NCBI GenBank assembly: GCA_032718475.1 | Contig: JAUCBJ010000367.1 | Location: 27,922 to 91,921, forward strand | Reading direction: 5' to 3' | Source of the DNA: Nemertoderma westbladi | Lineage: Eukaryota; Animalia; Xenacoelomorpha | DNA: 64,000 nucleotides | In this document: piece after piece, positions 33,991 to 60,872 of the stretch | Numbering within the stretch: position 1 is the stretch's first letter | How the letters are laid out: each line of letters begins with the position of its first letter | Notes under the pieces: model-generated | Database searches by the model: none | The model's input: only the letters and a program-made list of their open reading frames with translations | Told to the model about the DNA's origin: nothing | Position numbers and translations under genes: made by a program

Positions 33991-34019
<29 letters not shown>

Positions 34020-34260
34020 GGGGGACTGGACGCAAAACCCGCCTTGGCGAATTAATATCCCGCTCCAATGTTAAAGTCTCAATTTATGGAAAGGAGCAGG
34101 TTACAGTGGATCGATATTTTAACCAAAACAATATACTAAACACAATAAAACAGGTTACAATTTTATTTTTGCTCGTAAACAGCTGTTATTTGTGTCCAAT
34201 TTCCCCTGGAGAGGAAGGAATTTGTATTGCGTCCAGTCCCCCCCCCCCCCCCCCCCCCCC
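33991..34260. mobile_element. Small inverted-repeat (MITE-like) unit bounded by poly-G and poly-C
   Basis: poly-G-GGGGACTGGACGCAA at the left end is the reverse complement of TTGCGTCCAGTCCCC-poly-C at the right end. Confidence 0.55.
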
Positions 34261-35122
34261 TTATCTGCTTAATTGATAACATTGTTTCTATTATGTTTCA
34301 TAATAGGGTTGGTGCGCGAAAAAATTGTTGGGCTAGAAACAATTGAATAAGGGGTAGCAAGGTGCCCTGAGTCGAGAGGCGGGTTGGTGTGTTTTTTTTT
34401 GTAAAAACACAAGGAAACGGTCGAAATGGCGGGTTTAAATACGAGCGGGAAGCCAATTTTGAAAACCGGCTGTGATTGGCTGCTACTAGTGCTTTTATTT
34501 TGGTTTCTATGGATAGAGATTTTCGATCGATTCAAATGCATATTAAATTTCAATCATTTTGCACGTGGCTTAGATCAATTGAAAGCGGGGAATCTTGCGC
34601 GTCTTTTGACACTAAAAATGAAATAAATTCACAAAGAGGAAGATTGTTAAAATGCTGTTCACAATTGCAAACTCGACAGTTTTCCTGCCGGGTAGGCAGC
34701 ACTTCCTTGCCTACCGGTCAGCGCTTGACTCAGCCCTATAAGCCTATTGCAGTATCTGAGTATTGCAGCTTTACTTCATTAAGTTGGGTTTACCAGCGAC
34801 ATTTTTTAATATTCAAGTGTAGCCTACAGCCACTTATTAGAGAAGTGTCTGTAACGTCCAACCATATAGAGAAGCACACAGAGCGTAACACACAGGGAGA
34901 AGTGCGACGCTGATTGGCTGAAACTTTACGGTGCTGTCAGGAAATTAGTACACGTTTATTTCGCGATACAATTCAGAATTAATTTTAGGCCTATTACGAT
35001 TATATCCTTATTTGGCTGTGTTATTTTTAAAAACCTCTTTGTGAGAAATAAGGGACATCCAACTTGGATTCGTCTAATATATAAATGTTGTAGGGCCATA
35101 TCATTTTATTTGACTGTTTGAT

Positions 35123-35146
35123 ACTAGAAAGCCAGCAAGCTGGCTA
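35123..35146 (-). mobile_element. Helitron-like 3' terminus (hairpin + CTAG)
   Basis: The minus strand reads AGCCAGC-TT-GCTGGCT-TT-CTAG|T. The identical motif recurs at ~61307. A hairpin followed by CTRR is the established Helitron 3' end. Confidence 0.5.
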
Positions 35147-35714
35147 TAAGAAGACCGTCTATAAGACAACAAAACCGAAAATCTAAAAGATAATCTAATC
35201 CCCAATCAAACATCAATCGCAATAAATATGTAAACCTCTTCCACCTTCCATGCAGCCTTGGATAAAGCAGAATTAATGCCATGACCAGTTCGGAGTTCTC
35301 AATAGACAACCCACCCCAACCAATGGATTTACTGAGACACACCGGCCAGCTTGCTACCTGTCTTCCCAGCTAGCCAGAGTTAAATAATTATACAACGTTG
35401 CTATGATACAGAGAAAATCCTTCCCTATTCGCTACCAGAGCTGGGGGAAGATCTTCTTTGTGCTGGGGGTAAGAGCGCGTAAGAAAAGGGGGAAGAGGGG
35501 GAAAGAAAACGGGTATGGATCTATAAATAGCATCCAATGGGACGCCTCTATTTTACTACCGTTCTATACGGTAAACATACAGCTGTCTACCTTATTGAGA
35601 AGTGGTAATACTACTTAATAGTTGCTAAACTTACCCCCACCCCCCACCCACCTATCATTACACACCTACTGTACTTAACCATACATACCCATTCCTACAT
35701 ACCTACTTACACAT

Positions 35715-37530
35715 TCCCTCCCACCCACCTAAGCACGTCGACTTAACTGCACCCACCCACCCACCTAAGCACACCTACTTAACCGCACCCACCTACCCAC
35801 CTAAGCACGTATACTTACCCGCACCCACCCACCTACCTAAGCACAACTACTTAACTGCACCCACCCACCCTCCTAAGCACGTTTACTTAACCGCACCCAC
35901 CCACCAACCTAAGCACGTCTAGTTAACCACACCCACCCACCCTCCGACCTAAGCACATCGACTTAACCGCACCCACCCACCTAAGCACTAAGCACACCTA
36001 CTTAACCGTACCCACCTACCCACCTAAGCACACCTACTTAACCGCACCCACCCACCCTCCTAAGCACGTCTACTTAACCGCACCCATCCATCTACAAAGC
36101 ACGACTACTTAACCACACCCACCCACACACCTAAGCACGTCTACTTACCCGCACCCACCCACCCACCTAAACACGTCTACTTAACCGCACCCACCCACCC
36201 ACCTAAGCACGTGTACTTAACCGCACCCACCCACCCACCTATGCACGTATACTTACCCACACCCACCCACCTACCTAAGCACACCTAGTTAACCGCGCCC
36301 ACCTAAGCACATCGACTTAACCACACCCACCCACACACCTAAGCACGTATACTTACCCGCACCCACCCACCTACCTAGTTAATCGCACCCACCTAAGCAT
36401 ATCGACTTAACCGCACCCACCCACCCACCCACCTAAGCACGTGTACTTAACCACATCCACCCACCCACCTAAGCACGAATACTTACCCCAACCCACCCAC
36501 CTACCTAAGCACACATAGTTAACCGCACCCACCTAAGCACGTCTACTTAACCACACCCACCCAACCACCTAAGCACGTATACTTACCCGCAACCACCCAC
36601 CTACCTAAGCACACCTAGTTAACCGCACCCACCTAAGCACATCGACTTAACCGCACCCACCCACCCACCTAAGCACGTGTACTTAACCGCACCCACCCAC
36701 CCACCTAAGCACGTGTACTTAACCACACACACCCACCAACCCACCTAAGCACATCGACTTAACGGCACCCACCCACCCACCTAAGCACACCTACTTAACC
36801 GCACGTGTACTTAACCGCAAACACCCACCCACCCACCTAAGCACATCGACTTAACCGCACCCACCCACCCACCTAAGCACACCTACTTAACCGCACCCAC
36901 CCACCCTCCTAAGCACGTCTACTTAACCGCACCCACCCACCCACCTAAGCACACCTACTTAACCGCACCCACCCACCTACATAAGAACGTCTACTTAACC
37001 GCACCCACCCACCCACCTAAGCACACCTACTTAACCGCACCCACCCACCCTCCTAAGCACGTCTACTTAACTGCACCAACCCTCCCTCCTAAGCACGTCT
37101 ACTTAACCGCACCCACCCACCCACCTAAGCACGTGTACTTAACCGGACCCACCCACCCACCTAAGCACGTGTACTTAACCACACCAACCCACCCACCCAC
37201 CTAAGCACATCGACTTAACGGCACCCACCCACCCACCTAAGCACACCTACTTAACCGCACGTGTACTTAACCGCAAACACCCACCCACCCACCTAAGGAC
37301 ATCGACTTAACCGCAAAGCACACCTACTTAACCGCACCCACCCACCCACCTAAGCAATTCTACTTAACCGCACGTGTACTTAACCACACCCACCCACACA
37401 CCAAGGCACGTCGACTTACCCGCACCCTCCCACCAACCTAAGCACGTCTACTTAACCGCACCCACACACCAAACTAAGCTAGCACGTCTACTGAACCGCA
37501 CCCAACCTCCCCTAACCCTACACACCTAAT
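35715..37530. repeat. C/A-rich minisatellite, ~35-bp unit ACTTAACCGCACCCACCCACCCACCTAAGCAC(GTGT/ACCT/ATCG)
   Basis: Tandem units are directly visible, with a variable number of internal ACCC subrepeats. Degenerate fringes extend to ~35630 and ~37620. Confidence 0.95.
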
Positions 37531-38454
37531 TACCCGCACTCACCTACCCCTACCCACCCTCCCTCCCTCCCACACCCTATTTACCCGCACCGACCGCCCG
37601 AATCTAACAAACACACCCACCCCTACTTTATCTACCTTATTCAGACTCCACGGCAAACATTCTCGGAGCAATCATGCCGTACCAGAAATTGGCAAAAACG
37701 GAATGCAGGGACAGTTTTCGCCAAAACCTTTTTTACAAGAACCATTTTTTGATAATCGTTTCCTATAAAATAATGCTAAGTATTTACATCCTAGAAGGGA
37801 CCTAGACATCCTTTACATCCTAGACACGGCGAATCGACCTGTGCTATTTTTATACACCAAGAGCTTAATTTTCCCCGCTTAAATAATTAATAACCGAAAT
37901 AATAACCCAAATAATCGATACATTTATTTGACAGCAAGAAGCCCTGACGGTCTTCTAATAAAAATACCATTGTTCTATTTGTATATCCCCTTGAGTTTTA
38001 ATAATCCTAACAATAGTTCCTGACAGAGCCCCCTCTGTAACCTCTGTAACCCTTGGTAACCTTACAGTACCCGAAATCATCCTAACATGATTAACAGCAT
38101 TAATTGATTGAAAATGAAAAGGCCATATGTCACCACCACCAGCGGCACCAAATGCATCGTTGGTTACATAAATGCACAAAACTTTAAAATATTTGATGCA
38201 CTTGGTCTTATATTCTTAAATTATTAAGAAGTTTTTTTTATAGAGACTACTGTATCTGTAATCAATATTTTGGCAATAGGCAAACTCTTAAATTCCACTA
38301 TTAGCTAGCTACAGTATAGTTACAGTACATAAGTATGTGTATAGGCGCTGTCGGTGTCCTAGGCAAAACTACCACCCACCCGCGCGGAATGCCCCCCCCC
38401 CCCCCCCCCCCCTCCCCCATAGACATAAGAACTGTATAATAATACTGTAGTAGG

Positions 38455-42850: not shown

Positions 42851-42984
42851 GCATTTCCAACCAAATTTGTTCAGAAGAAGTACGGAGAATCTTAGAGTAC
42901 AGGTAATCTTAACAAGTGTACAAAATGTCAACTCATTTCTGTCAAAATTGGCGGAGAAATAGCTTTCATGACCTACTACTGTAC

Positions 42985-43143
42985 ATGCAAAGTTTCAGGG
43001 TACTTTTAAAGGCTAGTTTTTTCACCGGTCAAAAAACACTAAATCTGCCACACACAAGTAAAATAGCCCACTTTGAATACACCATCTCAGCTAAGGAAAA
43101 TCTTTCTTAGCGAAAGTAGTTGATTTTCCTTAGCTTCGTGGAT
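42985..43143 (-). mobile_element. Partial copy (5' end) of Helentron/HINE-like non-autonomous element
   Basis: The sequence matches 44135-44279 and 60060-60217, including the GCTAAGGAAAATC...GATTTTCCTTAGC stem and the CTTCGTGGAT end. Confidence 0.6.
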
Positions 43144-43159
43144 TTCAAGTCAATATTTA

Positions 43160-44279
43160 CTAGAATGGCATTTCCTAAAGGAAATACAACCACAAAGCTA
43201 AGGAAAATTAAACAAAGGGCCACAATTTGGTTTGTTGCTTAGCCTAGTTTAGTAGCATTTGCCAATAAATAACTTCTATTCCTATATGGAAACTAGAGTT
43301 CTCTGGAATTCAGTCCAGATTGTGGTTCAGATAACACATACCAAGTTTCAGAAAATATTGTAGTTTATGTCCAAATTACCGCTTTTCTATCAAAATGCAT
43401 CTGTTTGCAGTGGTTGTCATGGAAACTGAAAAATAGAACAATGTAATTCGGATGCAGAATAAGTCATATAGTGGGAGTAGGTCTTGGTCCCAAGTCATTA
43501 TACTATTAACTTGTGCTTCAAATTATCATTTTATAAATTTTAACATCTGTTTAGTCTTGTTACTATGGTAACTGGATTGTGTAATTAACCTCGAACGGCT
43601 TGTATATGGACCTTATAGATGTGTTGCAAAACCCCAAATTTATATATATTACATTATTTTGCTACAAATAGAGTATTGAATTTAGATTTGAATGATATAG
43701 ACTTTAATAAACTACAGTTACCCTGGTAACTAGGTATTTCTGGAATGTTTTGAGTTTCATTAAAAGTTCCAACTAGTGGTCCAGTCCAGATAACACATAC
43801 CCAGTTTCATAAAATTGTATCATGAAGTCTATGTCCAAATGAGTAATTTTTGCATAAAAACATCTGTTTTCAGCGGTTGTCATGGTAACTGCAAAACAAA
43901 CAATGAAATTCGGACGCAGAATAAGTTATATAGTGGGGGTAGGGGTTGGTCCCAAGTCATAACACCTTAACCTTAAGCTTCAAATTATCATTTAAAAAAT
44001 GTTAACATCTGTTTAGCCAGGTTGCCTAGGTAACTGGATTTTCTATTTAACCTCAATCGGCTCTGCTATGGACCTTATAGTTGAGTTGAGAAACACCAGG
44101 TTTATATCTATTATAGTTTTCCTACAAATAGAGATACTTTTAAAGGCTAGTCTTTTCTGGAGTCAAAAAACACTAAATCTGCTCCATACAAGTATAAAAT
44201 AGCCCACTATGAATACACCATCTCAGCTAAGGAAAATCTTTCTTAGCGAAAGTAGTTGATTTTCCTTAGCTTCGTGGAT
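43160..44279 (-). mobile_element. Apparently complete ~1.1-kb Helentron/HINE (DINE-1-like architecture) non-autonomous rolling-circle element
   Basis: It has subterminal inverted repeats (CCACAAAGCTAAGGAAAAT / ATTTTCCTTAGCTTCGTGG), an extra short inverted repeat next to one subTIR, and a CATTTCCT-A-AAGGAAAT hairpin + CTAG at the other end. An internal ~460-bp diverged duplication is seen at 43398 vs 43861. Confidence 0.65.
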
Positions 44280-45101
44280 TATGACTTGGGACCAACCCCT
44301 ACCCCCACTATATAACTTTTCACTTTTTATATTTATAATAGGAGTGTCTTTAAAACGCCGTTCGATCGCCGCGATCGTTCGTTTTTATTAAATCCAGTAA
44401 ATATCCAACGAGAAAGTTTTACGATGCCAGTATTAAATTAAATTTGCTCACGCTTAAAATTATGAAACTTCCAAGAAGCTACGCGGTTAATACAGCTGAC
44501 GCCAATCATTTTAACCATGAGTAATATTCTGTGGAAATTCGGTCACCGGTCACGGTATGCCGGTCACACTAATCACCAGCGCAAAGCTGTTACCACTTTT
44601 GTCAAAGTTTTTCAAAAAAATAATTCTCACAGGACAATAGCGATTAAACCGGTTGAGTGGTTAAAATATACCCAATATCCCGATAGCCCATCATTCTATT
44701 ATAAATACACAGTAAAATACTTTATTTCATTATTTCATATTTTTCGCACATTGTTTTAGCGCAATATTATTGATTATTTTTACACTTAATATTTCACAAA
44801 ATTTGTTGATGGAATCTGTGAAACCATCACAACCAAAAATGATGCCATTAAAAATATATAATGCATCTGTTCTGAGTTTTATATATTCATAATTTAAAAT
44901 AATATATTCATATAAATTAATTATCATGAAGATAACCCATTATAGTAAAACGATGAGATAATACTATACACGTTCGTGGGGCCTTCGCGCAGCACGAGGC
45001 CCATTTATTAGATACAAATTAAAATTGAGCGACTGTATCACAAAATCAGGTTTTGAGAAATTTACCCACACCACCAATCAATCAAAGAAAGGGGGACAGT
45101 A

Positions 45102-46321
45102 TGTAAAAGCTTTTGTGGGATAACTGATTCGTTTGCCTTGCTGGCCAGTTCCCCCGCCCCGGTCGCTAGAATACTCTAAAAGGGATCTATAGCTAAAATA
45201 GTGCAAGCTACCAGCTTATTGGCTGATGTGCTGTACGAAGGTATCTGGGTTCCGTTCGATCGGCCAACCAGCTTAGGGAGGTTGCCTCAGCCCTGCTGTC
45301 CGTATCGGCCAATAGAATTTGAGTGGGCGTTGATTTTGACCTATCCCAGAGCTACTGAACTGAATTTCCTATCTGTATGCTCATCCTCTGTGTTGGACGG
45401 GAGCTTCGGGGAATAAGGGTAGTTGGTATCCTCGTATAGTCAGGTAGTCATATGATTCTTTATATGATTCTGTTGTTGTGTTCCCATTTTTCGCCAGACC
45501 ACCGGCTTTTGGGAAGAACTCTAGTAAAACTGCTTAAATTATCGAAAGTATAACTGTTATTCAATCAACCTACTGATCTAATTAACTCACTATTAATCAT
45601 ATAATTCTCCCGAACTTTACTTATTAATTATATTGTTTGTACTGTTATTTACCGTCAGTTATTAATTGCATCTATTTGTTGAGGAAATATTGCTCTTTGG
45701 AGAATACTGATAAATCACCCAAAATTCCCAATTTTCTTGATACACTACAGGTTAGAGAGACAGGATATACATAACAATTGCGATTTATAAAAAATGTGGT
45801 GTGTATTGAATCTAATGTTATTTAGCAGACCCTACATGAGTCAATTGCTGCTCTCTTTATGTGTGATCAAATTTACTGACGGTCGGCAGAATAGTGTGCA
45901 TGATTGTGATTGGTAACAAAGCATCTCCTAAAGAATGCGCCTTATACTTTAATCATAAGCAGTATCGTTGCGTTTAGTATAAGTCCTAGCTCTGTTTAAA
46001 TAGATAGAGCGCCACGTCCTAAAGGAACTGTTAATATTTTCCCGAAAGCCAATAATATCTGTCAGAAATTAATTATTAACGATCAATCGAATAATACAGT
46101 AGGTTTACACTGCAACCTTACACTGCAATAATAAAATTTAAGCATCCGAATTCAGCCTCCCGGGTGTATCCATCGGGTGAATGATCGCGCATGGGCTGGC
46201 TTCGGCTAATGTTTTGTTTATTAGCATAAAATATTGTCGTATGCTAAAGGTGTGTTAATTAACTAAAAGACATATAAATTTTGGCAGGTTAAACTGCTAA
46301 AGGTCTTCAAAAGCGCGAACA
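45102..46321 (+). repeat. 5' LTR (1220 bp)
   Basis: TGTAAAAGC...GCGCGAACA. It matches 56375-57593 except for about 5 substitutions and a 1-bp indel found by eye. Confidence 0.97.
46130..46135 (+). promoter_or_regulatory. Candidate LTR polyadenylation signal AATAAA (equivalent copy at ~57402-57407 in the 3' LTR)
   Basis: A canonical hexamer ~185 nt before the LTR end. Its use is inferred only. Confidence 0.4.
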
Positions 46322-46332
46322 ATAACAGTTAT
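46322..46332 (+). promoter_or_regulatory. PBS position: ATAACAGTTAT, not tRNA-type, complementary to LTR 45550-45560
   Basis: There is no TGG after the LTR. The reverse complement ATAACTGTTAT(T) is present in the LTR. Confidence 0.45.
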
Positions 46333-46389
46333 CGATCTTATTGCAGTAAGCAATAAGGTTGCAAAATACCGTAGTGACCGGTAAACCTG

Positions 46390-46518
46390 AACCGGTACTT
46401 CAGTAGGTCAGTAGGCCCAACTGCCAGAACCGGTACTGCTGTAGGTCCGTAGGTCCAACTGCCAGAACCGGTACTTCTGTAGGTCTGTAGGCCCAACTGT
46501 CCTAACCGGTACTGCTGT
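46390..46518. repeat. 38-bp tandem repeat (~3.4 copies) in the retrotransposon leader
   Basis: AACCGGTACT...GTAGGYCCAACTG units start at 46390, 46428, 46466 and 46504. Confidence 0.9.
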
Positions 46519-46674
46519 ATAAGTACATTAGTATTATTCGAATTTGATTATTGTATACCGGTAGGTCTTAGTATTTATCAGGGACGGCCGCCCTGGTTTT
46601 TATTGAGATTTTACTTATTTCTGTCGGTTTTATTTCCTAGTAAGTAAATATTGAGCTGAAGATGTGTAAGTCTG

Positions 46675-47262
46675 CTCAGATTGTTCAGATAATTGTAGGC
46701 TGAGCTGCTGTCTGACTGTTGTTGGGTTTGGAGAGATTACGGCGTGTGTAGAGTTTGTCTGATAAAGTGCCGTTAGTAAGTTGGGGCAGCCATATGCTGT
46801 AAGGTCAATCCCCTCTTAAAGAATAAGTCGTACTACCGTGTTAGAACGCATACTAACTAACTATTTCAGAATCTGCATATACTGTAGTTTATTTAGGCTT
46901 GATCGTAGTCTGCCAGCGTTTTAGCCTGTGTTTGTTTGTGTGGTCTGTTCAGGTACCGTAATAGTTATTACTCAGATATTTTGTAGGCTGGATTGTTGTC
47001 TAGCTATTATTAGGTCTGAAGAGATTGCTGTGTGTGTGGAGTTTGTCTGATAAAGTGCTGTTAGTAAGTTGGGGCAGCCATATGCTGTAAGGTCAATCCC
47101 CTCTTAAAGAATAAGTCGTACTACCGTGTTAGAACGCATACTAACTAACCATTTCAGAATCTACACGTACGGTAGTTTATTTAGGCTTGGTGGTAGTCTG
47201 CCAGCGTTTGGTTTGTATTTTGTTTGAGTATTCTGTACGGGTAGCGTAATATTTATTATTCA
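46675..47262. repeat. ~288-bp direct duplication in the retrotransposon leader
   Basis: GAGTTTGTCTGATAAAGTGC...AGAACGCATACTAACTAAC occurs at 46751 and 47039. The centre is near-identical and the edges are diverged. Confidence 0.9.
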
Positions 47263-48553
47263 GAGTTTATGCGATTATTCGCAACATTCATGTCCCCAAG
47301 TTTATCCCTACAGTAATTGTGCTTGTTATACATACCGTTATAGTTAAATTAACCCCGGTACTACACGGGCTGCTTGGCGTAGGACAAGACTGGTGACTTT
47401 GTGCTCTGGTCACTCCAGCAGATGCCGTGGTTCTTTTAACTGTTCAAGTATATTTAACTACTGATTATTTGTTATACCGGTACTTGTACCTAATTTAGGG
47501 TTTAGTGTACAGTGCTTTCCGAAGTAATTAGTGTGTAGGCAGTATATTTGTGTTGTAAAGTGGTTAATAGGCACGCTGGATCTGGTAGTCCGCGGTAATT
47601 AACTTCTAGGTAGGAACAATCCGTGATACATAACGTAGTACCTATAGCGATACGGTTATAGGTCGTCAGGCGGTGGTATTTTCCTATCTGGACAGTGCAA
47701 TATATTTACTACTACTTATTATTTCAAATACCGTAGTACCCTGTCTGTTGTAATAACCAGAAGATCTAACCCTTTGTTAGGCTGGTTTGTAGACTTCCTG
47801 TAAAATTACCCTAAAAATTCGTACGTAATATTTTTGTTGTGTTTAATTAGAGATTTAATCTCACCCGTATCGTAAGTAATTTGTAGTATTAAGTAACTTA
47901 GGTAAATTAGAATTATCAGTTTTAGTGTCAAATAAATAGCACTTCACTGAGAGCGCACAGCTTCTGTGTAGTGACCCCCCAGAAATAATAACATTTATTT
48001 CAAGTATTGACAAACCCATTTTAAACGGGTATATATCTATTATAAATCAACTCAAACGATTTATAAATAGTAGGCCTGCCATACAACAACTAGGTCTCAA
48101 TATCAGTTGGACTACTGCTTAAATAACGGTAATAAAGTAAGTTAAAGTAACCAAGTAACCCTAAAATAGTCAGAAATTCAATTATTCTAAAATAATTGAC
48201 ATACCGGTATTTACCATAGGCTTATTATATTTATTTCTATAAATTTGAGCTGAAATCATACCGGTACTCTGTAATTAATTCTAGTTCATAATTATACTTA
48301 TATATACTATCAGTGTAAGCTGTATACCGGTATTCACGATAGGCCTATTATATATTTATATATATCTGTGCTAAATTTATATACCGGTACTCTGTGACAA
48401 ACCTAGTTTACAATACTTATATATATTATAAGTGCATACCGGTATTCTAATATACTGCAATAAATTACCGGTACTAGGCCAGCGGTCATACTGAATTACT
48501 AGACTTGCTTTAACTGTAACTATAGCAGTAAGCATTCAACTGTATAGCTAAAC

Positions 48554-51500
48554 ATGTCTGACACTCAGCAAAACCTGTCAGACAGTCTAATAGATACAAC
48601 CATCCGAAAGGTCACCCCTCCAGTAGTATCAGACCCTAAGCTAATCCACCATAGGTCCATTATAGGTACTCGGGCCCAAGTCAAACGGAACCAGGAAGCA
48701 GCTGTCCCAAAGCAGCAACAGCCTAGTCAAGAAACTTGTTCCCAGCGATCCTATAGCTCCAGTAGTTCGGATACTGTCGAGCTGACCCCCGAACGCGGAT
48801 TGCAGATGGCGGCTACAGCTTACTCGGACCCTCTTCTCACCCTTCCTGCCGCAGTGCTAACCACTATATTGATTGCGGTGGAGGAACATCAAGCAGATTG
48901 GGCGAGGAATAAGAAAGCGACCCAAGATAATTATGCGGGATACGCCAGGGAAGAATTGATGTCTATTGTCGAGTCACAATGGAACTTTCCCGGACCTGGA
49001 CTCCCGTTAGATCTGTCCGAAGCTACTTGGGAGGATATACACCGGATGGGAGTGACTAAAGATACAATGGATCCAGCTGTTTGGAAGAGGTCGGCAGCAG
49101 GATATGTGCAAGGGTTCTTCGGCTCCTTAGAGCGGTTAGAAGAACAACTGTTTCGACAACCTCAAGGACCTCAAGAGCAGGAAGAGCTGCTTTATCAAGT
49201 ACGCGAAAGAACCCTACGTATTAGAATAATCCTATCAGCCTTTGAGGAAACTTCCAAAAGAAGACAGGACACGTCGCTGCAGGTTTCTGTTAAGACTTGG
49301 TTCCAGCGAGTAGGTCGCAAAGTGCAAGAAACGGACCAGTGGAAATCCCAGCTGTCTGAGAGACTAACTTCTGAAGACCCAACTGATGTCACCATTTCTC
49401 AAGCGGAAAGCGAAGAGACCCCCGAGAAACCGCGAACTAGAGACGCTATCGACATTTATCTGTCCGACTATCAGCGATTCCTAGGAGACGAAGAGTTGAG
49501 GAGACGGCTGTCTGGACTTTCCCCTAATAGTGAAGGAACCAAGCTTGTGTTGGACTCAATCGATGCCGAAATGTTAGCTGCAAACCAAGCTGAATTTGAT
49601 GAAAAACTCCGCCTCACTAGAGTCCGAGAAGAACAAGTAAAGAAAGAACGGATAGAGAAAAGAAAGGTAGCAGCAGCAGCGGCAGCTGAAGCAGAAGCAG
49701 AAAGAAAAGAAGCAGAAGCCGAAAGAAAAGCGGCAGAAGCAGAAGCCGAAAGAAAAGCGGCAGAAGCAGAAGCCGAAAGAAAAGCGGCAGAAGCAGAAGC
49801 CGAAAGAAAGGCGGCAGAAGCAGAAGCCGAAAGAAAGGCGGCAGAAGCAGAAGCCGAAAGAAAGGCGGCAGAAGCAGAAGCAGAAAGAAAAGCGGTGGAA
49901 GCAGAAAGAAAAGCAGCAGTGGCAGAAGCAGAACGGAGAGCGTCTGAGGAGACTATCCAACTGGAGTTGGAAAATCTGCAAGAGACGCAAGACAGTATAA
50001 ATAAACAGTTTACTGCTAATCAAATGCAGATGATGAGAAAATCTACTCCCAAGCGCCAGGGATACACATCCTCGGAGGAAGGCGAGACCACCGATCCTGA
50101 AGGCGGAGGAAATAGATCTCATCTAAGTAGGCGTAGAAAAACATCTTACCGTCGCAAATTGCCTGATTTGCCCCCAGCTGTTAGAAGACAGCTAGCTAGC
50201 ACAGACTTGAGTAGTATAGAACCTACAGCCCAAAGTATTAAGGTCAAAAGACTCCCTACAATAGTTGATGAGCCTGAAATAATTAGGCCTGTCGTTCCCA
50301 AAGTCACTTCTGTGTTAGAGACCCCTGTACTTCCAGAGCTTAACTCTAAATTCCCTTTACATAGTACTACACTGCCTGTACCCGGTGGAACAGTCCAAGA
50401 GAATATCCCTGTCCGGATAGCAGAGAGAGAAATCAAAGATTTGTCTCCCGTCGTCCCGCGTCAGCCCGCTACTATGTTGGCGACTCCCGCTTCGGCGGTT
50501 GAGTGGGTAGAAGAGGGACGGCGGGGGATGAATCTCCTGCTAGGACAGATGCAGGAGACTGTCCACCAACTTAAGGGAACAGTGAGGGAAGGTAGAGCAG
50601 AGTTGCAAGAAGTGCAGCAAAGTATCGCACTAGAACGCGATAAATTAGTCAATATACAAAAGGGCATACCAATACCCCCTGTAACATTGTGTCAACCTGT
50701 TAGGTCTGAAGTATTACATGCGCAAGGTGTGGAGCCTACACGCATCTATACTGCTAGTGAAGTTGAAACTCCTATAACAAACCCTATTAAGGGTGATTAT
50801 AGACCTGTTATTAATGATATTCCCTATAGACCTGATAATGATCCGAGAAATTTATATACCGATAATTCTATATTAAATAACACGATGGCCCAAGAAAGCT
50901 TTACGCGGCAGATGGCTAGAACAGAAGCCTGCCAAGCGGTCAAAGTGGGAGAGATCGTCAAATTCAATGGAGACGAAATGAAATGGTTACCTTTCAACGA
51001 ATATTACAAAGACAGCATACAGAACTCTGTGCTATCTAACGGAGAGAAACTTAGGTTCCTCATCAAGTGCTTGGAAGGACCTCCCAAGTTAATGGCGTTA
51101 AAGTTTATTGGACATCCAGAAGGATTAAGACAAGTTTGGGATACATTAAACATCAGGTATGGTAACAAGGACAACATAGCTAAGTATTTGTATGCGAAAT
51201 TAGTGGCCCCTCGACACTTCCTTAGTAGCGGGATTATAGAGTTTTCCGATGAGATTCAAGAGATCTGTAGACAATTGGACTGGTTAGGTAAGTCTCATGA
51301 ATATCAGAGTTCCATGGTTATTGGAGCCGTAGTCTCTACTTTACCAAAGGGTGGAGTATGTACACGCTGGGACAAGAAAGTGTTGTACATGAATGAACAA
51401 CAACGACGAAGTCCTACCATGGCTGACCTCATGTCCTTCTTAGATGGTGAGGTAAAACTACAACTCATCAAGCAGTCCAGAGAGAAAACATCGGAAAATA

Positions 51501-53227
51501 AGGTAAGTGAGAAACCCTCTTCTAGGAGAAGAGTAACACCTGTGTGTTACAATGACGACGGCGAAAGCCAAGCTTCTCAAGAAGAAGACAGCGGGAAAGA
51601 CACCGAACGATCTTACTATGTTGACAAAACCTCCAAAGACGTAAGTAAATACAAGTCTCGAACCAGTGACAGGAGAGAACAGGTAACAACAACTCCTCCT
51701 ACGTCTCCTAAGAGAATTCACGGAAGAAAGCCCGAAGAAAGAACGAGAGTGCAGAACGTTAACCAAGTTAAGGTGAGTAACATCAAACCAAAATGTGCGC
51801 TGTGCGACGGGCCCCACCGTTTGAGTGCGTGTGCTGAATTTCTAAAGAAATCCCTTGTAGACAGAAGTACAGTCCTGTGGAATAAGCGGTTATGCTATAA
51901 TTGCCTCAGATCAGGACACCAACGGCGAACCTGTTACTCCGACATAAAGTGTGCAAAGTGTGGCGCGAAACATCACATCTTGTTACACAGTGAGTTCGAA
52001 CGAGACAAACTGAGTCAGGTAAGTGAGCCCGAACTACATGTCCAATTCAGTGATGTAAACGACACTGATCAAGAATCTGAGATGGAAGGATTCTATACTG
52101 ACGAATTCTCCGACGCCAACGAATCCTGTTATCTAATCAATACCGCAGTGTATCGAGCACTTACTTACGAAAAGGACATCAACGATGAGTTTCCCCCAAC
52201 TACTTTCGCCAAACAACCATCTTGGAAAGCTCCAGCTTCCAACGTAGGAATCAGAGAATTTCCTGTAGTTCAAGTAAGAGTTCACGGTCTTAACAAAAGC
52301 TACATAGTGAACGCCCTCCTTGACTCCGGCAGCACAGGAACATTCATCGATCAAGAACTAGCCAAAGATATCTTTGGTGGACAACCCAAGTTCCGGACTA
52401 AATTGAATATGTCAGGAATTATGCAGGTTTGGAAATCTACCCTAACGGCAGATTACTATGTAGGTGTGTTGTCCACCCCCCAGGATAAGTTAGGAACACA
52501 AGGTATAAGGTCAGTAAAAATGGTGGCTATAAAGAACTTTGCTACTACTCAAGCAGAACCTTATAACTGGGACGAGGACGAGTGCATCCAACATCTTGAG
52601 ATACCTCGATTCCAAACCGATTATCCTGGAGTGCAAATCCTCATCGGCCAAAACGCGCATGAGGCGCTCGAGACATTGGAGAAACGGCCTGCTCAACCGC
52701 AGCCATTACAAACTTATGCGGTAAGAACTAGAGTAGGTTGGTACTTCACTGGCCCTTCCCGTAGAACTCTCAAAGAGAGATTACCTCAACAACAGGTATA
52801 CCAAGTAAAGGAATGGGAAGTGGAGAGCAGTGAGGTGGACGACCCAACTGAGGGAACACCATACTCCTCAGATAATGACGATATTAACTCCAATGTAGAT
52901 CAATGGAGACATCGCCCCGAGATGATTAATCTAGCCGACAGCGCTTCCAGAGGAGCAACTCCTCAAGAACGGATAGATACTCCCGGCTGGTTAAGTGGAC
53001 CCGACTCCCTAAGTAAAGAAGAAGATGAATGGCCTCCTCATCTTACCACGGCGAAGATTAGACAGGCCAAGGGAGTGGAGGAAGTAACACGACAGCCTAA
53101 TCGCCCAGCTGGTCATTTAGGTTTACTGGAAAGAGACCGAAAACTGTCTGGAAACCATGGAAGGCAAGATACTCTTCCTACGACCACTTCCCTAATTCGA
53201 CAAAGATCTAGGGACTCCATAACGTAA
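48554..53227 (+). CDS. gag: BEL/Pao Gag-protease polyprotein (1557 aa) with remnants of RNase H and integrase C-termini
   Basis: It contains a DUF1759-like capsid region (IVKFNGDEMKWLPF...EKLRFLIKCLEG), the BEL triple zinc knuckle (CALCDGPH....C, CYNCLRSGH....C, CAKCGAKHHILLH) and an aspartic protease (NALLDSGS at ~52322, with ILIG and RTRVGW). An RNase H tail follows (QWRH...NLADSASRG...WLSGP...EW). No RT catalytic motif or integrase HHCC/DDE is present. Confidence 0.92.
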   Translation: MSDTQQNLSDSLIDTTIRKVTPPVVSDPKLIHHRSIIGTRAQVKRNQEAAVPKQQQPSQETCSQRSYSSSSSDTVELTPERGLQMAATAYSDPLLTLPAAVLTTILIAVEEHQADWARNKKATQDNYAGYAREELMSIVESQWNFPGPGLPLDLSEATWEDIHRMGVTKDTMDPAVWKRSAAGYVQGFFGSLERLEEQLFRQPQGPQEQEELLYQVRERTLRIRIILSAFEETSKRRQDTSLQVSVKTWFQRVGRKVQETDQWKSQLSERLTSEDPTDVTISQAESEETPEKPRTRDAIDIYLSDYQRFLGDEELRRRLSGLSPNSEGTKLVLDSIDAEMLAANQAEFDEKLRLTRVREEQVKKERIEKRKVAAAAAAEAEAERKEAEAERKAAEAEAERKAAEAEAERKAAEAEAERKAAEAEAERKAAEAEAERKAAEAEAERKAVEAERKAAVAEAERRASEETIQLELENLQETQDSINKQFTANQMQMMRKSTPKRQGYTSSEEGETTDPEGGGNRSHLSRRRKTSYRRKLPDLPPAVRRQLASTDLSSIEPTAQSIKVKRLPTIVDEPEIIRPVVPKVTSVLETPVLPELNSKFPLHSTTLPVPGGTVQENIPVRIAEREIKDLSPVVPRQPATMLATPASAVEWVEEGRRGMNLLLGQMQETVHQLKGTVREGRAELQEVQQSIALERDKLVNIQKGIPIPPVTLCQPVRSEVLHAQGVEPTRIYTASEVETPITNPIKGDYRPVINDIPYRPDNDPRNLYTDNSILNNTMAQESFTRQMARTEACQAVKVGEIVKFNGDEMKWLPFNEYYKDSIQNSVLSNGEKLRFLIKCLEGPPKLMALKFIGHPEGLRQVWDTLNIRYGNKDNIAKYLYAKLVAPRHFLSSGIIEFSDEIQEICRQLDWLGKSHEYQSSMVIGAVVSTLPKGGVCTRWDKKVLYMNEQQRRSPTMADLMSFLDGEVKLQLIKQSREKTSENKVSEKPSSRRRVTPVCYNDDGESQASQEEDSGKDTERSYYVDKTSKDVSKYKSRTSDRREQVTTTPPTSPKRIHGRKPEERTRVQNVNQVKVSNIKPKCALCDGPHRLSACAEFLKKSLVDRSTVLWNKRLCYNCLRSGHQRRTCYSDIKCAKCGAKHHILLHSEFERDKLSQVSEPELHVQFSDVNDTDQESEMEGFYTDEFSDANESCYLINTAVYRALTYEKDINDEFPPTTFAKQPSWKAPASNVGIREFPVVQVRVHGLNKSYIVNALLDSGSTGTFIDQELAKDIFGGQPKFRTKLNMSGIMQVWKSTLTADYYVGVLSTPQDKLGTQGIRSVKMVAIKNFATTQAEPYNWDEDECIQHLEIPRFQTDYPGVQILIGQNAHEALETLEKRPAQPQPLQTYAVRTRVGWYFTGPSRRTLKERLPQQQVYQVKEWEVESSEVDDPTEGTPYSSDNDDINSNVDQWRHRPEMINLADSASRGATPQERIDTPGWLSGPDSLSKEEDEWPPHLTTAKIRQAKGVEEVTRQPNRPAGHLGLLERDRKLSGNHGRQDTLPTTTSLIRQRSRDSIT
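49680..49935 (+). repeat. 27-bp in-frame tandem repeat encoding (AAEAEAERK)n in Gag
   Basis: GCGGCAGAAGCAGAAGCCGAAAGAAAR units are directly visible, about 8-9 copies counting the degenerate ones. Confidence 0.95.
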
Positions 53228-53764
53228 TTATATATGGAGTGGGTGTATGTCTATATTATTTTATCTATTTTATTACATTTTATATGTAAATGTTATTATG
53301 TACGTTATTATAATCGTTTTTATTTAATTTTATTTAGTAAAATGTTATTTTAGAATATTTAGTAAATTAGTGCAATATATTAGTGTTTATTACGTACATA
53401 ATTACTATAATATATATTTAGTGCGACGGCGAGAAATGATTATTTTTCTCTTCCCTTACTGTCCGTATCATATTATAAATACGTGACTACAGTAAGATGA
53501 AATGTCCGTACTTCTTAAAGTACAATAAAGCCACTACTATATTTAAGTATTATTGGTAGGCAGAGTATTAGGAATGCAAAGTTCAGATCCTCGTGTCTCG
53601 GCTAAACCAAGCTCTGGGTAGACCTTGGAAACGACTTGCCTCTTCACACTGACATTGCTTCGTGCGATATTGCTCTTCTACCTTATAACAAATAATACAT
53701 ATAGTAGCGTGATGTCCCTCTAACAGTAGCGTAAATCGCAAATAAATCTGTTAAACTTTTTGAC

Positions 53765-54036
53765 CATCTGTAATTCTAGTCGATTAAGATATCGTGGCAC
53801 CCACCGATATACTTGAAAGACAAATTCTAGAATCAGTGGTTAACGTCCCCAGACAAGTTCTGGAATAAATCGGTGCCCATCCTAAATATTAATTTAATAT
53901 TTATTAAAATCTGTAAAATTCCGATCCTTTAAAATTTCTAGTCAATTAAAATATCGCAGTATTTACCGATATTCTTAGAAGGACTATTTTATAGAATTAA
54001 GGATCCTGAGTTCCCAGACATGCTCTGGAATAAAAT
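53765..54036. repeat. Diverged ~100-bp direct repeat pair in the post-gag spacer
   Basis: TTCTAGTCRATTAARATATCG...CCGATAT...CCCAGACA.G.TCTGGAATAAA occurs at ~53773 and ~53936. Confidence 0.75.
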
Positions 54037-54661
54037 TTGTGTCAATTTAACATCAAATAATAAAATTCACGGGAATAAATTTAAATTCATATTCAAATGA
54101 ATTTCATAAATTGTCATTTTTTGCAATTTATAACATTCCCAAAATTCCAGTAATTAATAGATCATGGGAGCGGAGATTCATATTGAGTGTATTAAAGTGC
54201 GAGAATCTCCAACATATAGTCAATAGCCGATAAAATTTATAAAATCATGCATAAAGAGGATATTGACAACTAAAGAATTACTATTAAATAACATCCCAGA
54301 TCTGTATGCATGAGAATTACCCTAATTCTACCGCTAGTTTTCCATAATGTCACCATGGCAACACCCATGCTAGAATTAGAAGCAAGTTAAAGGAACAATA
54401 AAAGGCTTGCCCCATTGCGTAGCCTAAGAGGATACATAGCGCACTATTAGTATCCAAGGATACATAGTAATAACGTGACATTCTGGAAGACACTGACTAA
54501 CGAACAAATGGCCTGCATGTGTGCAGTAAGTAATGATTGTATGGAATTTGTGCGTTTATAGGTGAATGTTACTACTAAAGTGTGTTTACAGTAGCTAATC
54601 GCAATTGTAAAGTAGCCCTAACTCTACCGAGATAACCTCAAGTGGATTCAAGCTTTTGGGA

Positions 54662-54804
54662 CGGACAGTGGTGGGACTTGTGCCGGTTATCGTTGTCGTG
54701 CTGTTGCTACATGTTGGCGTAAACACCGCGACAACGGTACATCGGCGCTGAGAAACCCACTGTCCGGGGGCAAAGACTAGTAGGCAGCGACGCCCGCTTG
54801 CCTA
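54662..54804 (+). other. Long imperfect RNA hairpin plus a second small hairpin upstream of the accessory ORF
   Basis: 54662-54671 pairs with 54757-54766 (10 bp perfect), 54680-54685 with 54743-54748, and 54689-54700 with 54727-54738 (G-U wobbles). A TAGGCA/TGCCTA hairpin sits at 54781-54804. Confidence 0.65.
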
Positions 54805-54846
54805 AATATTAACTCATACTGATATTAATAAACTCAGATAGCAGAT

Positions 54847-56296
54847 ATGACGGAATTGATAGAAGATGACCTTGGTATTAGAGAGCGATATACTCTACCT
54901 TTACAAGCGTTTGTGGATAGCTTGATACGCGGTGAAGCCGATCCGACTATTACGGAGGACGATGGTCGTTATATCGAACCGCCGATGTCCCAAGAGCAAC
55001 TTACGCGTGAATTGGACTATCGAAAATTAACCGCTCGCTATACGCATCGTAATGGTACGTATATGGACTTCCTAACTACCGGCCATCCTATCGATTTACA
55101 TGATACGGACGATGTATACACCGAAAGGGAAATGGTTCTATTTAAATATCATACCCAGCGGAGTCGTAACGATAAACCGAGAATAGATCACGAAAATTAT
55201 ATTCGTAACAGACTGGGAAGACGAACCAATATGCCTAGAATCTGAAGAGATTCAGCCTATCGCGCCCGGAACAATGACAACGATTACCTCCTAGAATGGT
55301 ATCAAGGTCCACAGTGTCTCACTGCGTACGATTATCGCCATGCCAACTATGTTTCTCGGCAACGTTGTCGGTTATGCGCATCGAGAGACCATGTTACGCC
55401 CATGGACACAAACGTCCGCTGTTCCTATTTCCACGAACAACCGACGATGGAAATTTATTGCGCGTATTACAGACTCAATAACTTGCACATTTTTGCGGTT
55501 TGCCCTCAATTTATGACTCAATGTCACCATTGTCAACTAAAGGGACGCGCCAGTTTCGATTGCCCTTTTTAGTCACGATTTGGAAAGCGTAGATGAAATG
55601 ATCACACTACGTTACATCAGAGCTTGGGAAGCGAACGCTGATTTACATTGTGATTCGCGCCATCGTTATTATCCTGGACGCGCTTACGAAGGAGTTTATG
55701 CGTTCCATCCTTATCTATTCGCTTCTGTCGAACAGAAATCACGCATATCAAGTTATGAACTACTGAAGCGCGTTGGAGAATGTATTTCAACCAAATATGT
55801 ACGCAAATTTCTCAGGAGCATTAATCCGAGTGACATCTATTCTTACAATTTAATAAACTTTATCCGTCAAGACCCTGCCTATGGAGACTTATTTGTCAAC
55901 TCACACCCCGAGTTACAGGAAGTATATCGACGGCCTTACGAGTACCGAGCCCGCGAACGCGAGTTGGAAAGAACCATTAAACCAAGGAAGTTTTTAACTG
56001 CCTATGGTCCACCCACGGCCCTCGTTCAGACCACTCGTAAAGGACCCGTAAGAGCGGCTGTCTTGAAACGAGCTCTCAAAGCCATTAGACCCCTCTCCCC
56101 GGACGTTGATGTCAATCAACCCGGTACTTCGACCGGCGGATATACCGATCGTAATCCCATACCTTCTGATGCAATCATATTGCACCCTTCACCCAAGAGT
56201 TATAGCCCTCCTCGTAAAGTGGCTCGCCCCAAAGAGAAAAGGACTCTTGCTAGCTTTAAAAAACTGCGTAAACGCCGTCCGCGCAAGAAAGACTAA
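54847..56296 (+). pseudogene. Disrupted accessory ORF (~480 codons) with Cys/His zinc-knuckle-like region and basic C-terminus
   Basis: ORF 54847-55245 continues in frame past the TGA to 55572 (CRLCASRDH..C, CAYYRLNNLHIFAVCP, CHHCQLKGRASFDC). Removing one T from the run at 55566-55570 joins it to ORF 55580-56296. Confidence 0.7.
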
Positions 56297-56366
56297 CTGT
56301 TTAGAGTATTTTTATATTTTAGAAACTGTGATTTTGTATATTTTATAGACTTAAATCCCATTTTCT

Positions 56367-56374
56367 GGGAGCGG
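56367..56374 (+). promoter_or_regulatory. Polypurine tract (GGGAGCGG)
   Basis: A short G-rich tract directly abuts the TG of the 3' LTR, the expected PPT position. Confidence 0.7.
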
Positions 56375-57593
56375 TGTAAAAGCTTTTGTGGGATAACTGA
56401 TTCGTTTGCCTTGCTGGCCAGTTCCCCCCCCCCGGTCGCTAGAATACTCTAAAAGGGATCTATAGCTAAAATAGTGCAAGCTACCAGCTTATTGGCTGAT
56501 GTGCTGTACGAAGGTATCTGGGTTCCGTTCGATCGGCCAACCAGCTTAGGGAGGTTGCCTCAGCCCTGCTGTCCGTATCGGCCAATAGAATTTGAGTGGG
56601 CATTGATTTTGACCTATCCCAGAGCTACTGAACTGAATTTCCTATCTGTATGCTCATCCTCTGTGTTGGACGGGAGCTTCGGGGAATAAGGGTAGTTGGT
56701 ATCCTCGTATAGTCAGGTAGTCATATGATTCTTTATATGATTCTGTTGTTGTGTTCCCATTTTTCGCCAGACCACCGGCTTTTGGGAAGAACTCTAGTAA
56801 AACTGCTTAAATTATCGAAAGTATAACTGTTATTCAATCAACCTACTGATCTAATTAACTCACTATTAATCATATAATTCTCCCGAACTTTACTTATTAA
56901 TTATATTGTTTGTACTGTTATTTACCGTCAGTTATTAATTGCATCTATTTGTTGAGGAAATATTGCTCTTTGGAGAATACTGATAAATCACCCAAAATTC
57001 CCAATTTTCTTGATACACTACAGGTTAGAGAGACAGGCTATACATAACAATTGCGATTTATATCAATGTGGTGTGTATTGAATCTAATGTTATTTAGCAG
57101 ACCCTACATGAGTCAATTGCTGCTCTCTTTATGTGTGATCAAATTTACTGACGGTCGGCAGAATAGTGTGCATGATTGTGATTGGTAACAAAGCATCTCC
57201 TAAAGAATGCGCCTTATACTTTAATCATAAGCAGTATCGTTGCGTTTAGTATAAGTCCTAGCTCTGTTTAAATAGATAGAGCGCCACGTCCTAAAGGAAC
57301 TGTTAATATTTTCCCGAAAGCCAATAATATCTGTCAGAAATTAATTATTAACGATCAATCGAATAATACAGTAGGTTTACACTGCAACCTTACACTGCAA
57401 TAATAAAATTTAAGCATCCGAATTCAGCCTCCCGGGTGTATCCATCGGGTGAATGATCGCGCATGGGCTGGCTTCGGCTAATGTTTTGTTTATTAGCATA
57501 AAATATTGTCGTATGCTAAAGGTGTGTTAATTAACTAAAAGACATATAAATTTTGGCAGGTTAAACTGCTAAAGGTCTTCAAAAGCGCGAACA
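56375..57593 (+). repeat. 3' LTR (1219 bp)
   Basis: A copy of 45102-46321, followed by the TSD CAGTA. Confidence 0.97.
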
Positions 57594-58924
57594 CAGTACG
57601 TGTTCACCCCCTTTAATCCCCCCCCCCCCCCCCCCCCCAACCTTCCCAACCACCAATACATAACCGGGACATCTACCACCCACGGAAGGGTAGCACGAAC
57701 TTATTTCCAATCGCACGTTAAATATGCAAAGCCAGGTGGTTTATAGGAATATAATAAACGCAGTACTCGTTTTCATTATAAGCCTCTTTGCGTTCGTCCT
57801 GTTTTGTATTTAAATATATTTCTTAAACGCAGGCTGACGATATTTATAATAATAATAACTAGGGATGCGATCAATATGTGAAGCCAGGTGGTTTATATAA
57901 TAATTTAGTCAACGAGGTACTCGTCTTCATTATACGCCTCGTTGCGCTCGTCGCTTGTCCTGTTTTGTCATAAAATATTTTTCCTAAACGCAGACTGACG
58001 ATCTTTATACAGTTATAACTATGCGAAGTTTCGAAACTGTGCGAGTAACTGTTGATACATCTATGTGGAGATGTGTGATATGTGGAGATGTGTGATACAA
58101 CGCCAACGCATCTTATGCCGATGTAGTAATATGGGTATTGAAATAATATTAAATCAATGTACACTCTTAAAGCTGCAGCGAAAAAATGTAGCTAATTTCC
58201 TAGGTTACATATAAAATAATAATATTATTTTTAAGAACATTAATTTTACTACTTTGCAAAAATTCAATTAAAAAATAACCAGACATATACATTGTGGAAT
58301 AAACTATTTCAGATAAGCCTACACAACAGCCATGCCATGGATGGTATTTATGTTATTATATCTGTCATTTACCTGAGATAGCAATACAACACTTATAGTA
58401 GAGTCAATACAGGAAGGATGTTGGGATGTTGGAATGCTGCCTGGGCTGGAATAGCAATACTGGTTGCCTATTACAATTTCTCTCTGGTTAGTCTACAGCC
58501 ACAACTCCAAGCTAGCTCCACACCAGCAGAGACATGACCAATAATCATTCCCAGCAACTAGCTGCTGCCTTACACACACATCCTTCCATCTTACCAGCAT
58601 GTTAGCCAATAAATGAGCAGTATTTAATGAGAATCAATTTTTTATGACGTTTTAATTACTTTAGATCAATTAAAGACACAATTAATAAAGCAAATCACTT
58701 GAACTAATTAAAAACTATAATAGAATGGGGTATGTGGATTACATCTGTATAATTTTTAATTATAATTATTTAAATCTTATACTGTAAAACAATTAATTTC
58801 CTTTAAAAGGCAGGTTGAAATGGTGTTTTTACCGTAATAACTTAATTAACTAATTAACTGCTATTATCTTAGCTTCTCGAAGGCCACAAGGAAATTCTAC
58901 TTGGAAAATTTCTAAACTTTTGCC

Positions 58925-59092: not shown

Positions 59093-59792
59093 CATACTCC
59101 TCCCAACACCACTGTCTGCCTAACTCTGCCAGACATCCCAAGTTAAAATTAATAGACCATGGAAGAATGTGGATTGTTGACATTTGATATTTTGGCAGAC
59201 AGTTCACTAGTGTAAGATTCACTAATGGTAAAACTAATAGCAGACAATTAGAAACACCCTCAGGGGTGCTGTTATTGAATAGATTTATTCACCTCTGTTT
59301 ATGTCTGCTGTATTACATTAGGAATATACTGGGTTCAATGGTGGTTGTTGTTTTATCCTAGTAGACTTATTGCTTATCTATCAGTTTAGTATTTTGTTAT
59401 TTAAAAAATAATGTGATTGATGTGTACTAATCCAAGCAGTAGACAATCTCGTGTTTGAATTTAACTTTACAACCCAGCCAAATGAATGTCCTGGACCGTA
59501 ATTGGTTGTATTCTAGCTTGTTGACCAGGGGAACTATCCAACCAGGGATTATCTTTTCTACCAGTTAGGCTAATAAAGATATTATAATAAAAAAATGTGA
59601 CTATGATATGAAAAACACACCATAGCACAAAAAGTATAAATGATGAAAAAAATATTTTGTAACCATCAGAAAGCCAATTAAATTCTAGGAAAAGTCAATG
59701 AATTTCATAATAATACATAAAAATCATCATCATGAATTTCTAAAAATAAAAAGTGTTGGGCAGATTCTCCCCAACCCCAGGTGGAATAGGGT

Positions 59793-60217
59793 TAACCTCA
59801 ATCGGCTCTGCTATGGACCTAATAGTTGTGTTGAGAAACCCCAAGTTTATATCTATTATGTAAAGATGATAAAAAAATAAAAAAAATGCCTACCACTTCA
59901 TCCGTTCGTTTTATATCTATTATAGTTTTCCTACAAATAGAGTTATAAATATTGACTTGAAATACATAGACTTTTTTATAACTCCGTTGCCATGGAAACC
60001 AGATTTTTCCTGGATGTGAGACCCAGCCCAAAAGATGCGCCTCGACGAGTAGTATATACATGCAAAATTTCAGGGTACTTTTAAAGGCTAGTTTTTTCGG
60101 AATCAAAAAACCCCAAATCTGCCCCATACAAGTAAAATAGCCCACTATGAATACACCATCTCAGCTAAGGAAAATCTTTCTTAGCGAAATTAGTTGATTT
60201 TCCTAAGCTTCGTGGAT
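59793..60217 (-). mobile_element. Partial copy of the 43160-44279 HINE-like family
   Basis: It shares AACCTCAATCGGCTCTGCTATGGACCT through GATTTTCCTAAGCTTCGTGGAT with that copy. Confidence 0.65.
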
Positions 60218-60221
60218 ACTA

Positions 60222-60872
60222 CTAGAAAGGCATTTCCTAAAGGAAATGCAACCACGAAGCTAAGGAAAATTAAACAAACGTTGACTCATCAGTTCATTGG
60301 TTTGCCTAGTTAAAAGTCATATGTCTTAATTCAACTCCCATTACCATGGTAACTGGACTTTTCTAGAACTGCTCAGTTTTAAATTAAGATCCAGTTTGTG
60401 GTTCCTGGTGACACAAATGGACTTCAATGAAGTTTCATTGAGTTGTAGATGTCAAAAATTAAGGATATATTTGTTAAAACATCTGTTTGCATTGGTTGTC
60501 ATGGAAACTAATAAATAGAAAAACGTAAATTGGATGCAGAATAAGTGATATAGTGAGGGTAGCGGTTGGTCCCAAGTCATAACACATTAACATTAGGCTT
60601 CAAATTAACATTTTATAAATTTTAACATATGTTCAGCCCGGTTGCCAAGGTAACTGGAATTTCTATTTAACCTCAATCGGCTCTGCTATGGACCTTATAG
60701 TTGAGTTGAGAAACCCCAAGTTTATATCTATTATAGTTTTCCTACAAATAGAGTTATAAATATTGACTTGAAATACATAGACTTATTTTGAAGTCCGTTG
60801 CCATGGAAACCAGATTTTTTCCTGGATATGAGACCCGGCCCAAAAGATGCGCCTCGACGAGTAGTATATACA
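60222..60872 (-). mobile_element. Further partial copy of the same HINE-like family, head-to-tail with the previous copy
   Basis: It begins CTAGAAAGGCATTTCCTAAAGGAAATGCAACCACGAAGCTAAGGAAAATT, as at 43160. The internal sequence matches 43860-44130 and 59900-60060. Confidence 0.65.

Follow-up and report, generated by a model that had tools for sequence, protein, structure and literature searches.

A non-autonomous BEL/Pao element with a complement of its own LTR at the primer-binding position, a candidate for self-primed reverse transcription

A 12.5-kb element of the BEL/Pao type, spanning positions 45102–57593 of the 64,000-nt window (the whole stretch of DNA analysed), has at its primer-binding position an exact complement of a segment inside its own LTR (Table 1). 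The complement is real and makes the element a good candidate for self-priming in what would be a third superfamily of LTR elements. Probably, with a probability that we put at roughly 0.7, the element primes reverse transcription with its own RNA, the enzymes being supplied in trans.

Table 1. Coordinates of the element and of the features discussed in the text
Feature	Positions	Strand	Remark
Target-site duplication, left copy CAGTA	45097..45101	+	Adjoins 5′ LTR
5′ LTR, 1220 bp, TG..CA	45102..46321	+	99.5% identity to 3′ LTR
Candidate self-primer, LTR nt 449–459	45550..45560	+	Putative start site
Second complement of the site, shorter: 8 nt, or 9 when the last LTR base is included	45641..45649	+	
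Third partial complement, 8 nt	46026..46033	+	To 46323–46330
Only AATAAA/ATTAAA of the LTR	46130..46135	+	Likely poly(A) signal
Primer-binding position, no TGG	46322..46332	+	Exact complement of 45550–45560
Predicted 12-bp hairpin	46333..46361	+	Stacked immediately after the site; the 40 nt that follow the LTR have −13.3 kcal/mol
1559-codon frame	48548..53227	+	Long N-terminal extension, DUF1759 gag, zinc knuckles, protease, then post-RNase H remnant
Three short open frames, 137, 108 and 251 codons	54832..56296	+	Before 3′ LTR
Polypurine-tract position, TTCTGGGAGCGG	56363..56374	+	Resembles tracts of relatives
3′ LTR, 1219 bp	56375..57593	+	Second copy of the candidate primer at 56823–56833
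Target-site duplication, right copy CAGTA	57594..57598	+	5 bp, same as left copy

The two LTRs of about 1.2 kb are 99.5% identical in a self-alignment, with 6 differences. Because they differ at only six positions, have TG..CA ends and are flanked by the CAGTA duplication, the insertion is young. The assignment to BEL/Pao made in a preliminary description of this DNA is upheld by the DUF1759 gag (PF03564, E 8e-12 in a domain search, in which the match to the protease was weak), by the protease itself, and by the homologues of the 1559-codon frame: all seven are BEL/Pao polyproteins, and all seven carry Peptidase_A17 (PF05380). When the interior was searched by tblastn with intact BEL/Pao polyproteins, RT, most of RNase H and integrase were absent, and a remnant of 50 residues from downstream of RNase H was found at 52886–53050. 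Thus, the element has gag and protease, TG..CA LTRs and a target-site duplication but not RT, RNase H and integrase in the BEL order; the preliminary description was silent on the absence of RT and integrase. Judged from its sequence, the element is a non-autonomous deletion derivative of BEL/Pao, recently inserted and coming from an animal. Its closest protein relative in the protein sets searched has an E value of 1.5e-29, and none reaches 1e-30; no relatives were found among viral contigs with two alignments, A2 and A3, or among metagenomes with the element's own protein as a query.

Several repeats accompany the coding region. About nine 27-bp repeats at 49680–49935, within the long N-terminal extension of gag, encode KAAEAEAER. 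The 2.2-kb leader (46322–48553) contains 13 copies of ACCGGT against 0.43 expected, which we take to be Grainyhead-like sites, together with a 38-bp tandem repeat near 46386–46519 and a 290-bp duplication at 46685–47264. The three short frames before the 3′ LTR have no Pfam match above the cut-off, and the 251-aa frame is without a homologue; one of them is Cys/His-rich, one has a basic tail at its end, and their region is covered by contigs of the X1 run described below. They are possibly a decayed accessory gene. Outside the element, a dispersed and internally repeated sequence flanks it on both sides (42982–44280 and 59792–60872), and farther upstream the window holds a 45/38-bp satellite array of about 680 units (1–33500) and, after it, a C-rich stretch (34000–38000) in which the GC skew falls as low as −0.64.

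The 5′ LTR is followed by ATAACAGTTATCGAT. As the preliminary description had stated, there is no TGG, and a site for the 3′-end of a tRNA is absent. Counted from the first base outside the LTR, positions 46322–46332 match 45550–45560 over 11 nt at offset 0, and the last base of the LTR adds a twelfth pair; indeed, self-alignment reproduced the claim that 46321–46332 is the exact reverse complement of 45550–45561. A published screening rule for self-primers asks for at least 10 complementary bases starting 0–5 bp after the LTR (PMC6317226, in its available text), and the 11 nt at offset 0 fall within it. Shuffling of the LTR, which had been proposed as a check, argues that the self-complementarity is non-random: a match of at least 11 nt appeared in 32 of 20000 dinucleotide shuffles (0.0016), or at a frequency of 0.004 when the start of the site was allowed to move from −1 to +4. 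Markov estimates with the motif masked gave a chance of 0.003–0.008, and 5 of 10018 internal positions reached 11 nt, a count that includes the site itself; the chance was 0.035 (200 shuffles) when any GT-AG junction was also permitted. The 11-nt match is significant for a single element, and alone it would not survive a genome-wide scan. Its evidential weight is lowered further because the LTR holds three copies of the core ACTGTTA, which matches the OVO motif TAACNGT.

This repetition is the starting point of one rival explanation, in which the match is a by-product of a near-palindromic OVO- or Myb-like site repeated in the LTR and at its border, and some other primer is used. TAACNGT/ACNGTTA is present four times in the LTR against 0.65 expected, although two of the four are the motif itself read on both strands; the LTR motif and the site motif differ at the middle base only, and, once the 8-nt core is given, three further matching bases have a probability of about 0.03. 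The LTR motif also presumably resembles a Myb site. Binding of OVO to TAACNGT near start sites is described in the accessible part of one report (PMC11410370). However, a factor site explains neither a copy that starts exactly at the LTR end nor the missing tRNA site, the OVO motif was chosen after the site had been seen, and relatives keep the pairing with unrelated letters, so that we consider this explanation improbable.

The candidate self-primer is located at 37% of the LTR length, upstream of the sole poly(A) signal. Because the only such signal lies at 46130, the primer would stand at the start of an R region of about 600 nt. Its upstream neighbour is T, and transcription from 45550 would therefore have a pyrimidine-A start; a TATA box is absent 25–30 nt upstream of 45550. 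In folding predictions, the duplex has pair probabilities of 0.67–1.0 when the 5′-end is set at 45550 or 45541, and is absent from the fold when the 5′-end is 45500. The single-sequence fold consists of a central duplex, a U5 stem and a local hairpin, and both flanks are not paired with R. An extension of the pairing to ATCG across a 5-nt bulge, proposed in the preliminary description, has to be abandoned: it is feasible as an isolated duplex only (−13.6 versus −11.4 kcal/mol) and does not form in the full fold, because the hairpin at 46333–46361 occupies the bases needed.

The pairing might instead have been selected as a structural switch in the control of packaging, translation or splicing, or the primer might come from another site or from a spliced form of the LTR. 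The two other partial complements in the LTR would suit such a view, and so would a weak GT at 45556, which joined to the AG at 45749–45750 would produce a 10-nt complement at offset 1. Nevertheless, the second and third complements are 2.9 kcal/mol weaker than the 45550–45560 pairing; no strict GTRAG junction match exists in the LTR of the element, and no junction of at least 9 nt is anchored at offset 0. A splice-made primer in this LTR was accordingly rejected under the strict rules given below, the complement being contiguous. Since the pairing also occurs exactly where minus-strand priming must take place, with no other primer evident, we give these alternatives little credence beside self-priming from the 45550 motif.

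Copies of the element's own family were found as contigs in a single run, X1 (the kind of contig is our guess). For 46230–46400, the comparison covers the best 8 of 12 X1 contigs, 4 of which span the LTR end, and takes in differences away from the contig ends. Among these listed contigs, those spanning the LTR end have no difference at 46319–46329 and no TGG. Across the contigs listed, the first 8 nt of the site do not vary, while positions 9–12 are altered in three (depths 2.2 and 3.6, and one unlisted). One contig spanning the LTR end is unlike the LTR over 201 letters further upstream. As for the LTR motif, one contig (depth 5.2) agrees with it through the tenth base and then departs; site and motif are never on one contig among those listed. 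No GT-AG joint was present among the 12 X1 joints listed. The LTR itself contains at 45633–45663 an acceptor-like stretch ending with CAG at 45658, after which comes TTATT, as it does after ATAACTG in the candidate primer, and one X1 contig is replaced over 45560–45624 and rejoins before this stretch. Possibly, 45557–45658 is the relic of an intron, although a donor is absent.

The invariance of the first 8 nt would also be expected if the primer were some small RNA of the host, for instance a tRNA fragment (a 5′-half that ends near the anticodon), with the LTR match due to chance. Six bases of the site (46323–46328), with two G:U pairs in addition, could presumably form a duplex with the anticodon loop of tRNA-Asn(GUU); this pairing is, however, short and weaker than the 11-nt self match. 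Priming by half-tRNAs does occur in Copia lineages (PMC6317226, available text). Against a tRNA fragment, no tRNA genes were found within the window, and the sites of relatives track each element's own LTR, not a common tRNA. We therefore regard a primer of this kind as quite unlikely.

Distant relatives were surveyed in 88 BEL/Pao loci, fetched with an alignment of eight polyproteins and selected by one NFYVDDC-type RT motif. A repeat pair was found in 40 of the 88, with both copies running on in 20, the LTR start only in 12, and neither in 8. The 20 were reduced to 17 by removing L035 and L041 (duplicates of L036 and L043) and L082 (no LTR pair). Under a strict rule, which demands a GTRAG donor, a pyrimidine-rich YAG acceptor and a junction complement of at least 10 nt, a complement of 10–16 nt (11–15 nt in the strict count) is formed across a GT-AG intron in the LTR, starting 1–4 nt after the LTR end, in 10 of the 17 loci whose LTR end is usable. 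These ten matches represent about seven independent families. In controls, swapped LTR/site pairs gave 2 matches in 272, from the sister pair L013/L056, and shifted sites 0 in 510. The preliminary description had named relatives with a normal TGG site as evidence against self-priming; TGG is near the LTR end in only one relative (L025) and absent in the other 16 of the 17 distant loci.

The seven remaining loci are varied. L004 has a contiguous complement of 10 nt and no strict junction match, and junction matches with a weaker acceptor or donor are found in L085 (11 nt) and L025 (10 nt). L088 yields 12 nt once its LTR end is corrected by 6 nt, and L057 a 10-nt junction with a GTAAA donor, read by eye; both are counted as misses in the 10 of 17. 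No match of 10 nt was found in L024 and L053, whose LTR ends are doubtful. Among the 12 loci with undefined LTR ends, there are five junction matches of 11–14 nt and four contiguous matches of 10–11 nt. Of the latter, the 10-nt matches in L016 and L069 emerged from 94 and 42 candidate ends, respectively, and are taken as chance, and those in L052 and L074 carry the same caveat of many ends. Four of ten further stretches have LTR pairs: L120 shows 11 nt at offset 0, and the end of L119 is undefined; L113 (8 nt) and L122 (7 nt) have no complement of 10 nt.

In L013, L021, L023, L036, L043, L049, L056, L062, L080 and L081, the complement of the primer site is split by a canonical GT-AG intron of about 75–450 nt in the LTR, with 3–9 paired bases before the donor, and the same holds for L002, L014, L027, L044, L045, L085 and L120. 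This intron-split complement of the relatives is more novel than the 45102–57593 element itself. The loci L079–L088 and L113–L122 are BEL/Pao elements in contigs of bacterial metagenome-assembled genomes, several with both LTRs; they are likely contamination from host animals.

The paired stretch begins at 29–60% of the LTR in 19 relatives and precedes the poly(A) signal where one exists. In 13 of these 19, against a background of 0.19, a CA lies no more than 3 nt from the base at which pairing begins, as expected if transcription begins there, in a test that was chosen post hoc and on families that are mutually related. The element has TA at its candidate start, not the CA common among relatives. 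Relatives retain the pairing between site and LTR with unrelated letters, and L080 and L081 differ at three bases of the site and at three facing bases of the exon. Compensatory change, a further check suggested at the outset, is thus seen with different letters in distant relatives; it may also occur in the element's own family, where the two sites never share one of the listed X1 contigs.

In gag-protease trees, the branch of the element is long, and its identity to the sampled loci does not exceed 26%. A careful gag-protease tree (row P0134 left out) makes it sister to the sampled clade with support of 99/96, a placement that is unsure. The contiguous L004 is nested among intron-bearing families, a position that fits loss of the intron by copying of a spliced 3′ repeat. 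The element, by the letters of its LTR and site, has the contiguous, Tf1-like form of the complement. The pattern in the relatives therefore raises the prior for self-priming in BEL/Pao elements that lack TGG, but these relatives are not the element's family.

If the element behaves like Tf1, its transcription would start at or just before 45550, and the first 10–11 nt of the transcript would fold onto 46322–46332. RNase H from an autonomous partner would cut behind these 10–11 nt, and from the new 3′-end RT would then copy U5 and R. The primer of most relatives is split by the intron and would be present only after splicing. Of the self-priming originally proposed in the preliminary description, the pairing and the absence of a site for a tRNA 3′-end stand, now with relatives that pair in other letters; the ATCG extension and the restriction to Tf1/sushi do not.

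A broader proposal, which we rate at somewhat better than even odds, is that a large and old BEL/Pao branch of aquatic animals dropped tRNA priming and primes with its own 5′-end, as a third superfamily to do so. Most members would need the spliceosome and have a first exon of few bases, and the element would represent the intron-free state, either an ancestral Tf1-like stage or a reverse-transcribed spliced 3′ repeat. If this is true, only a spliced 5′ copy could prime, and replication would be tied to host splicing; tRNA-free priming would have arisen in a third LTR superfamily, against the tRNA-primed BEL/Pao of the ICTV; the RNase H of BEL elements would, like that of Tf1, cleave an RNA duplex; and many animal elements would be missed or mislabelled by annotation tools that require a tRNA site. 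The element offers a sharp test, having one predicted 5′-end (about 45550), one predicted primer and, unlike the relatives, no need for splicing.

To our knowledge, self-priming has been demonstrated for Tf1 only. In the available text of the sources, Tf1 anneals its first 11 bases to the site, after which base 11 is severed from base 12 by RNase H (PMC7175516), a Tf1 transcript without its first 11 bases cannot be reverse-transcribed (PMC5341516), and self-priming is described for Tf1/sushi (PMC4600332; bioRxiv 10.1101/2022.12.06.519325). The preliminary description had limited it to that group, a limit too narrow in that the Copia TAR lineage and Tcn1 are predicted self-primers as well (PMC6317226, available text). 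For BEL/Pao, no report of self-priming was found in the literature searched, as far as its accessible text goes, although Repbase Reports and subscription papers may contain one; the available parts of PMC8220671, PMC13524379, PMC3601003 and PMC6934838 make no mention of BEL priming, and the relevant terms are absent from PMC554778, PMC12440569 and PMC3118150.

According to the ICTV profile (PMC8742986), Belpaoviridae replicate from a tRNA primer, tRNA-Arg or tRNA-Gly, which binds to a site of 18 nt. They share with the element a DUF1759 gag, zinc knuckles, a protease and TG..CA LTRs of up to 1.2 kb (PMC8742986), whereas the element has no 18-nt site for the 3′-end of either tRNA, is without TGG like 16 of the 17 relatives, and at 12.5 kb is without RT and integrase. 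In fungal Copia elements of the GalEa type (Conserved Hairpin Site), a tRNA site is also absent and a palindromic LTR border is followed by a hairpin, as in the element; the available text reports no LTR complement there, while the LTR of the element holds an exact one (PMC5445492). The Copia TAR lineage (Houba, Osr-1) and Tcn1 are predicted by a sequence rule under which the element also falls (PMC6317226, available text); they belong to other superfamilies and other hosts, and their self-primers are likewise predictions. The closest likeness in priming is to Tf1/Tf2 of S. pombe, Tj1, Tosmo and Tf1/sushi, which, according to the accessible text, have an 11-nt LTR complement right after the CA of the LTR and no tRNA site (PMC7175516; PMC4600332; bioRxiv 10.1101/2022.12.06.519325). 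Tf1/sushi elements are Ty3/gypsy chromoviruses, whereas the element is non-autonomous and its proteins, gag and protease, are those of BEL/Pao and not of chromoviruses, with a putative start and a putative RNase H cleavage. In place of the three-duplex pretzel of Tf1, its predicted fold has a local hairpin after the site, and its R would be about 600 nt long.
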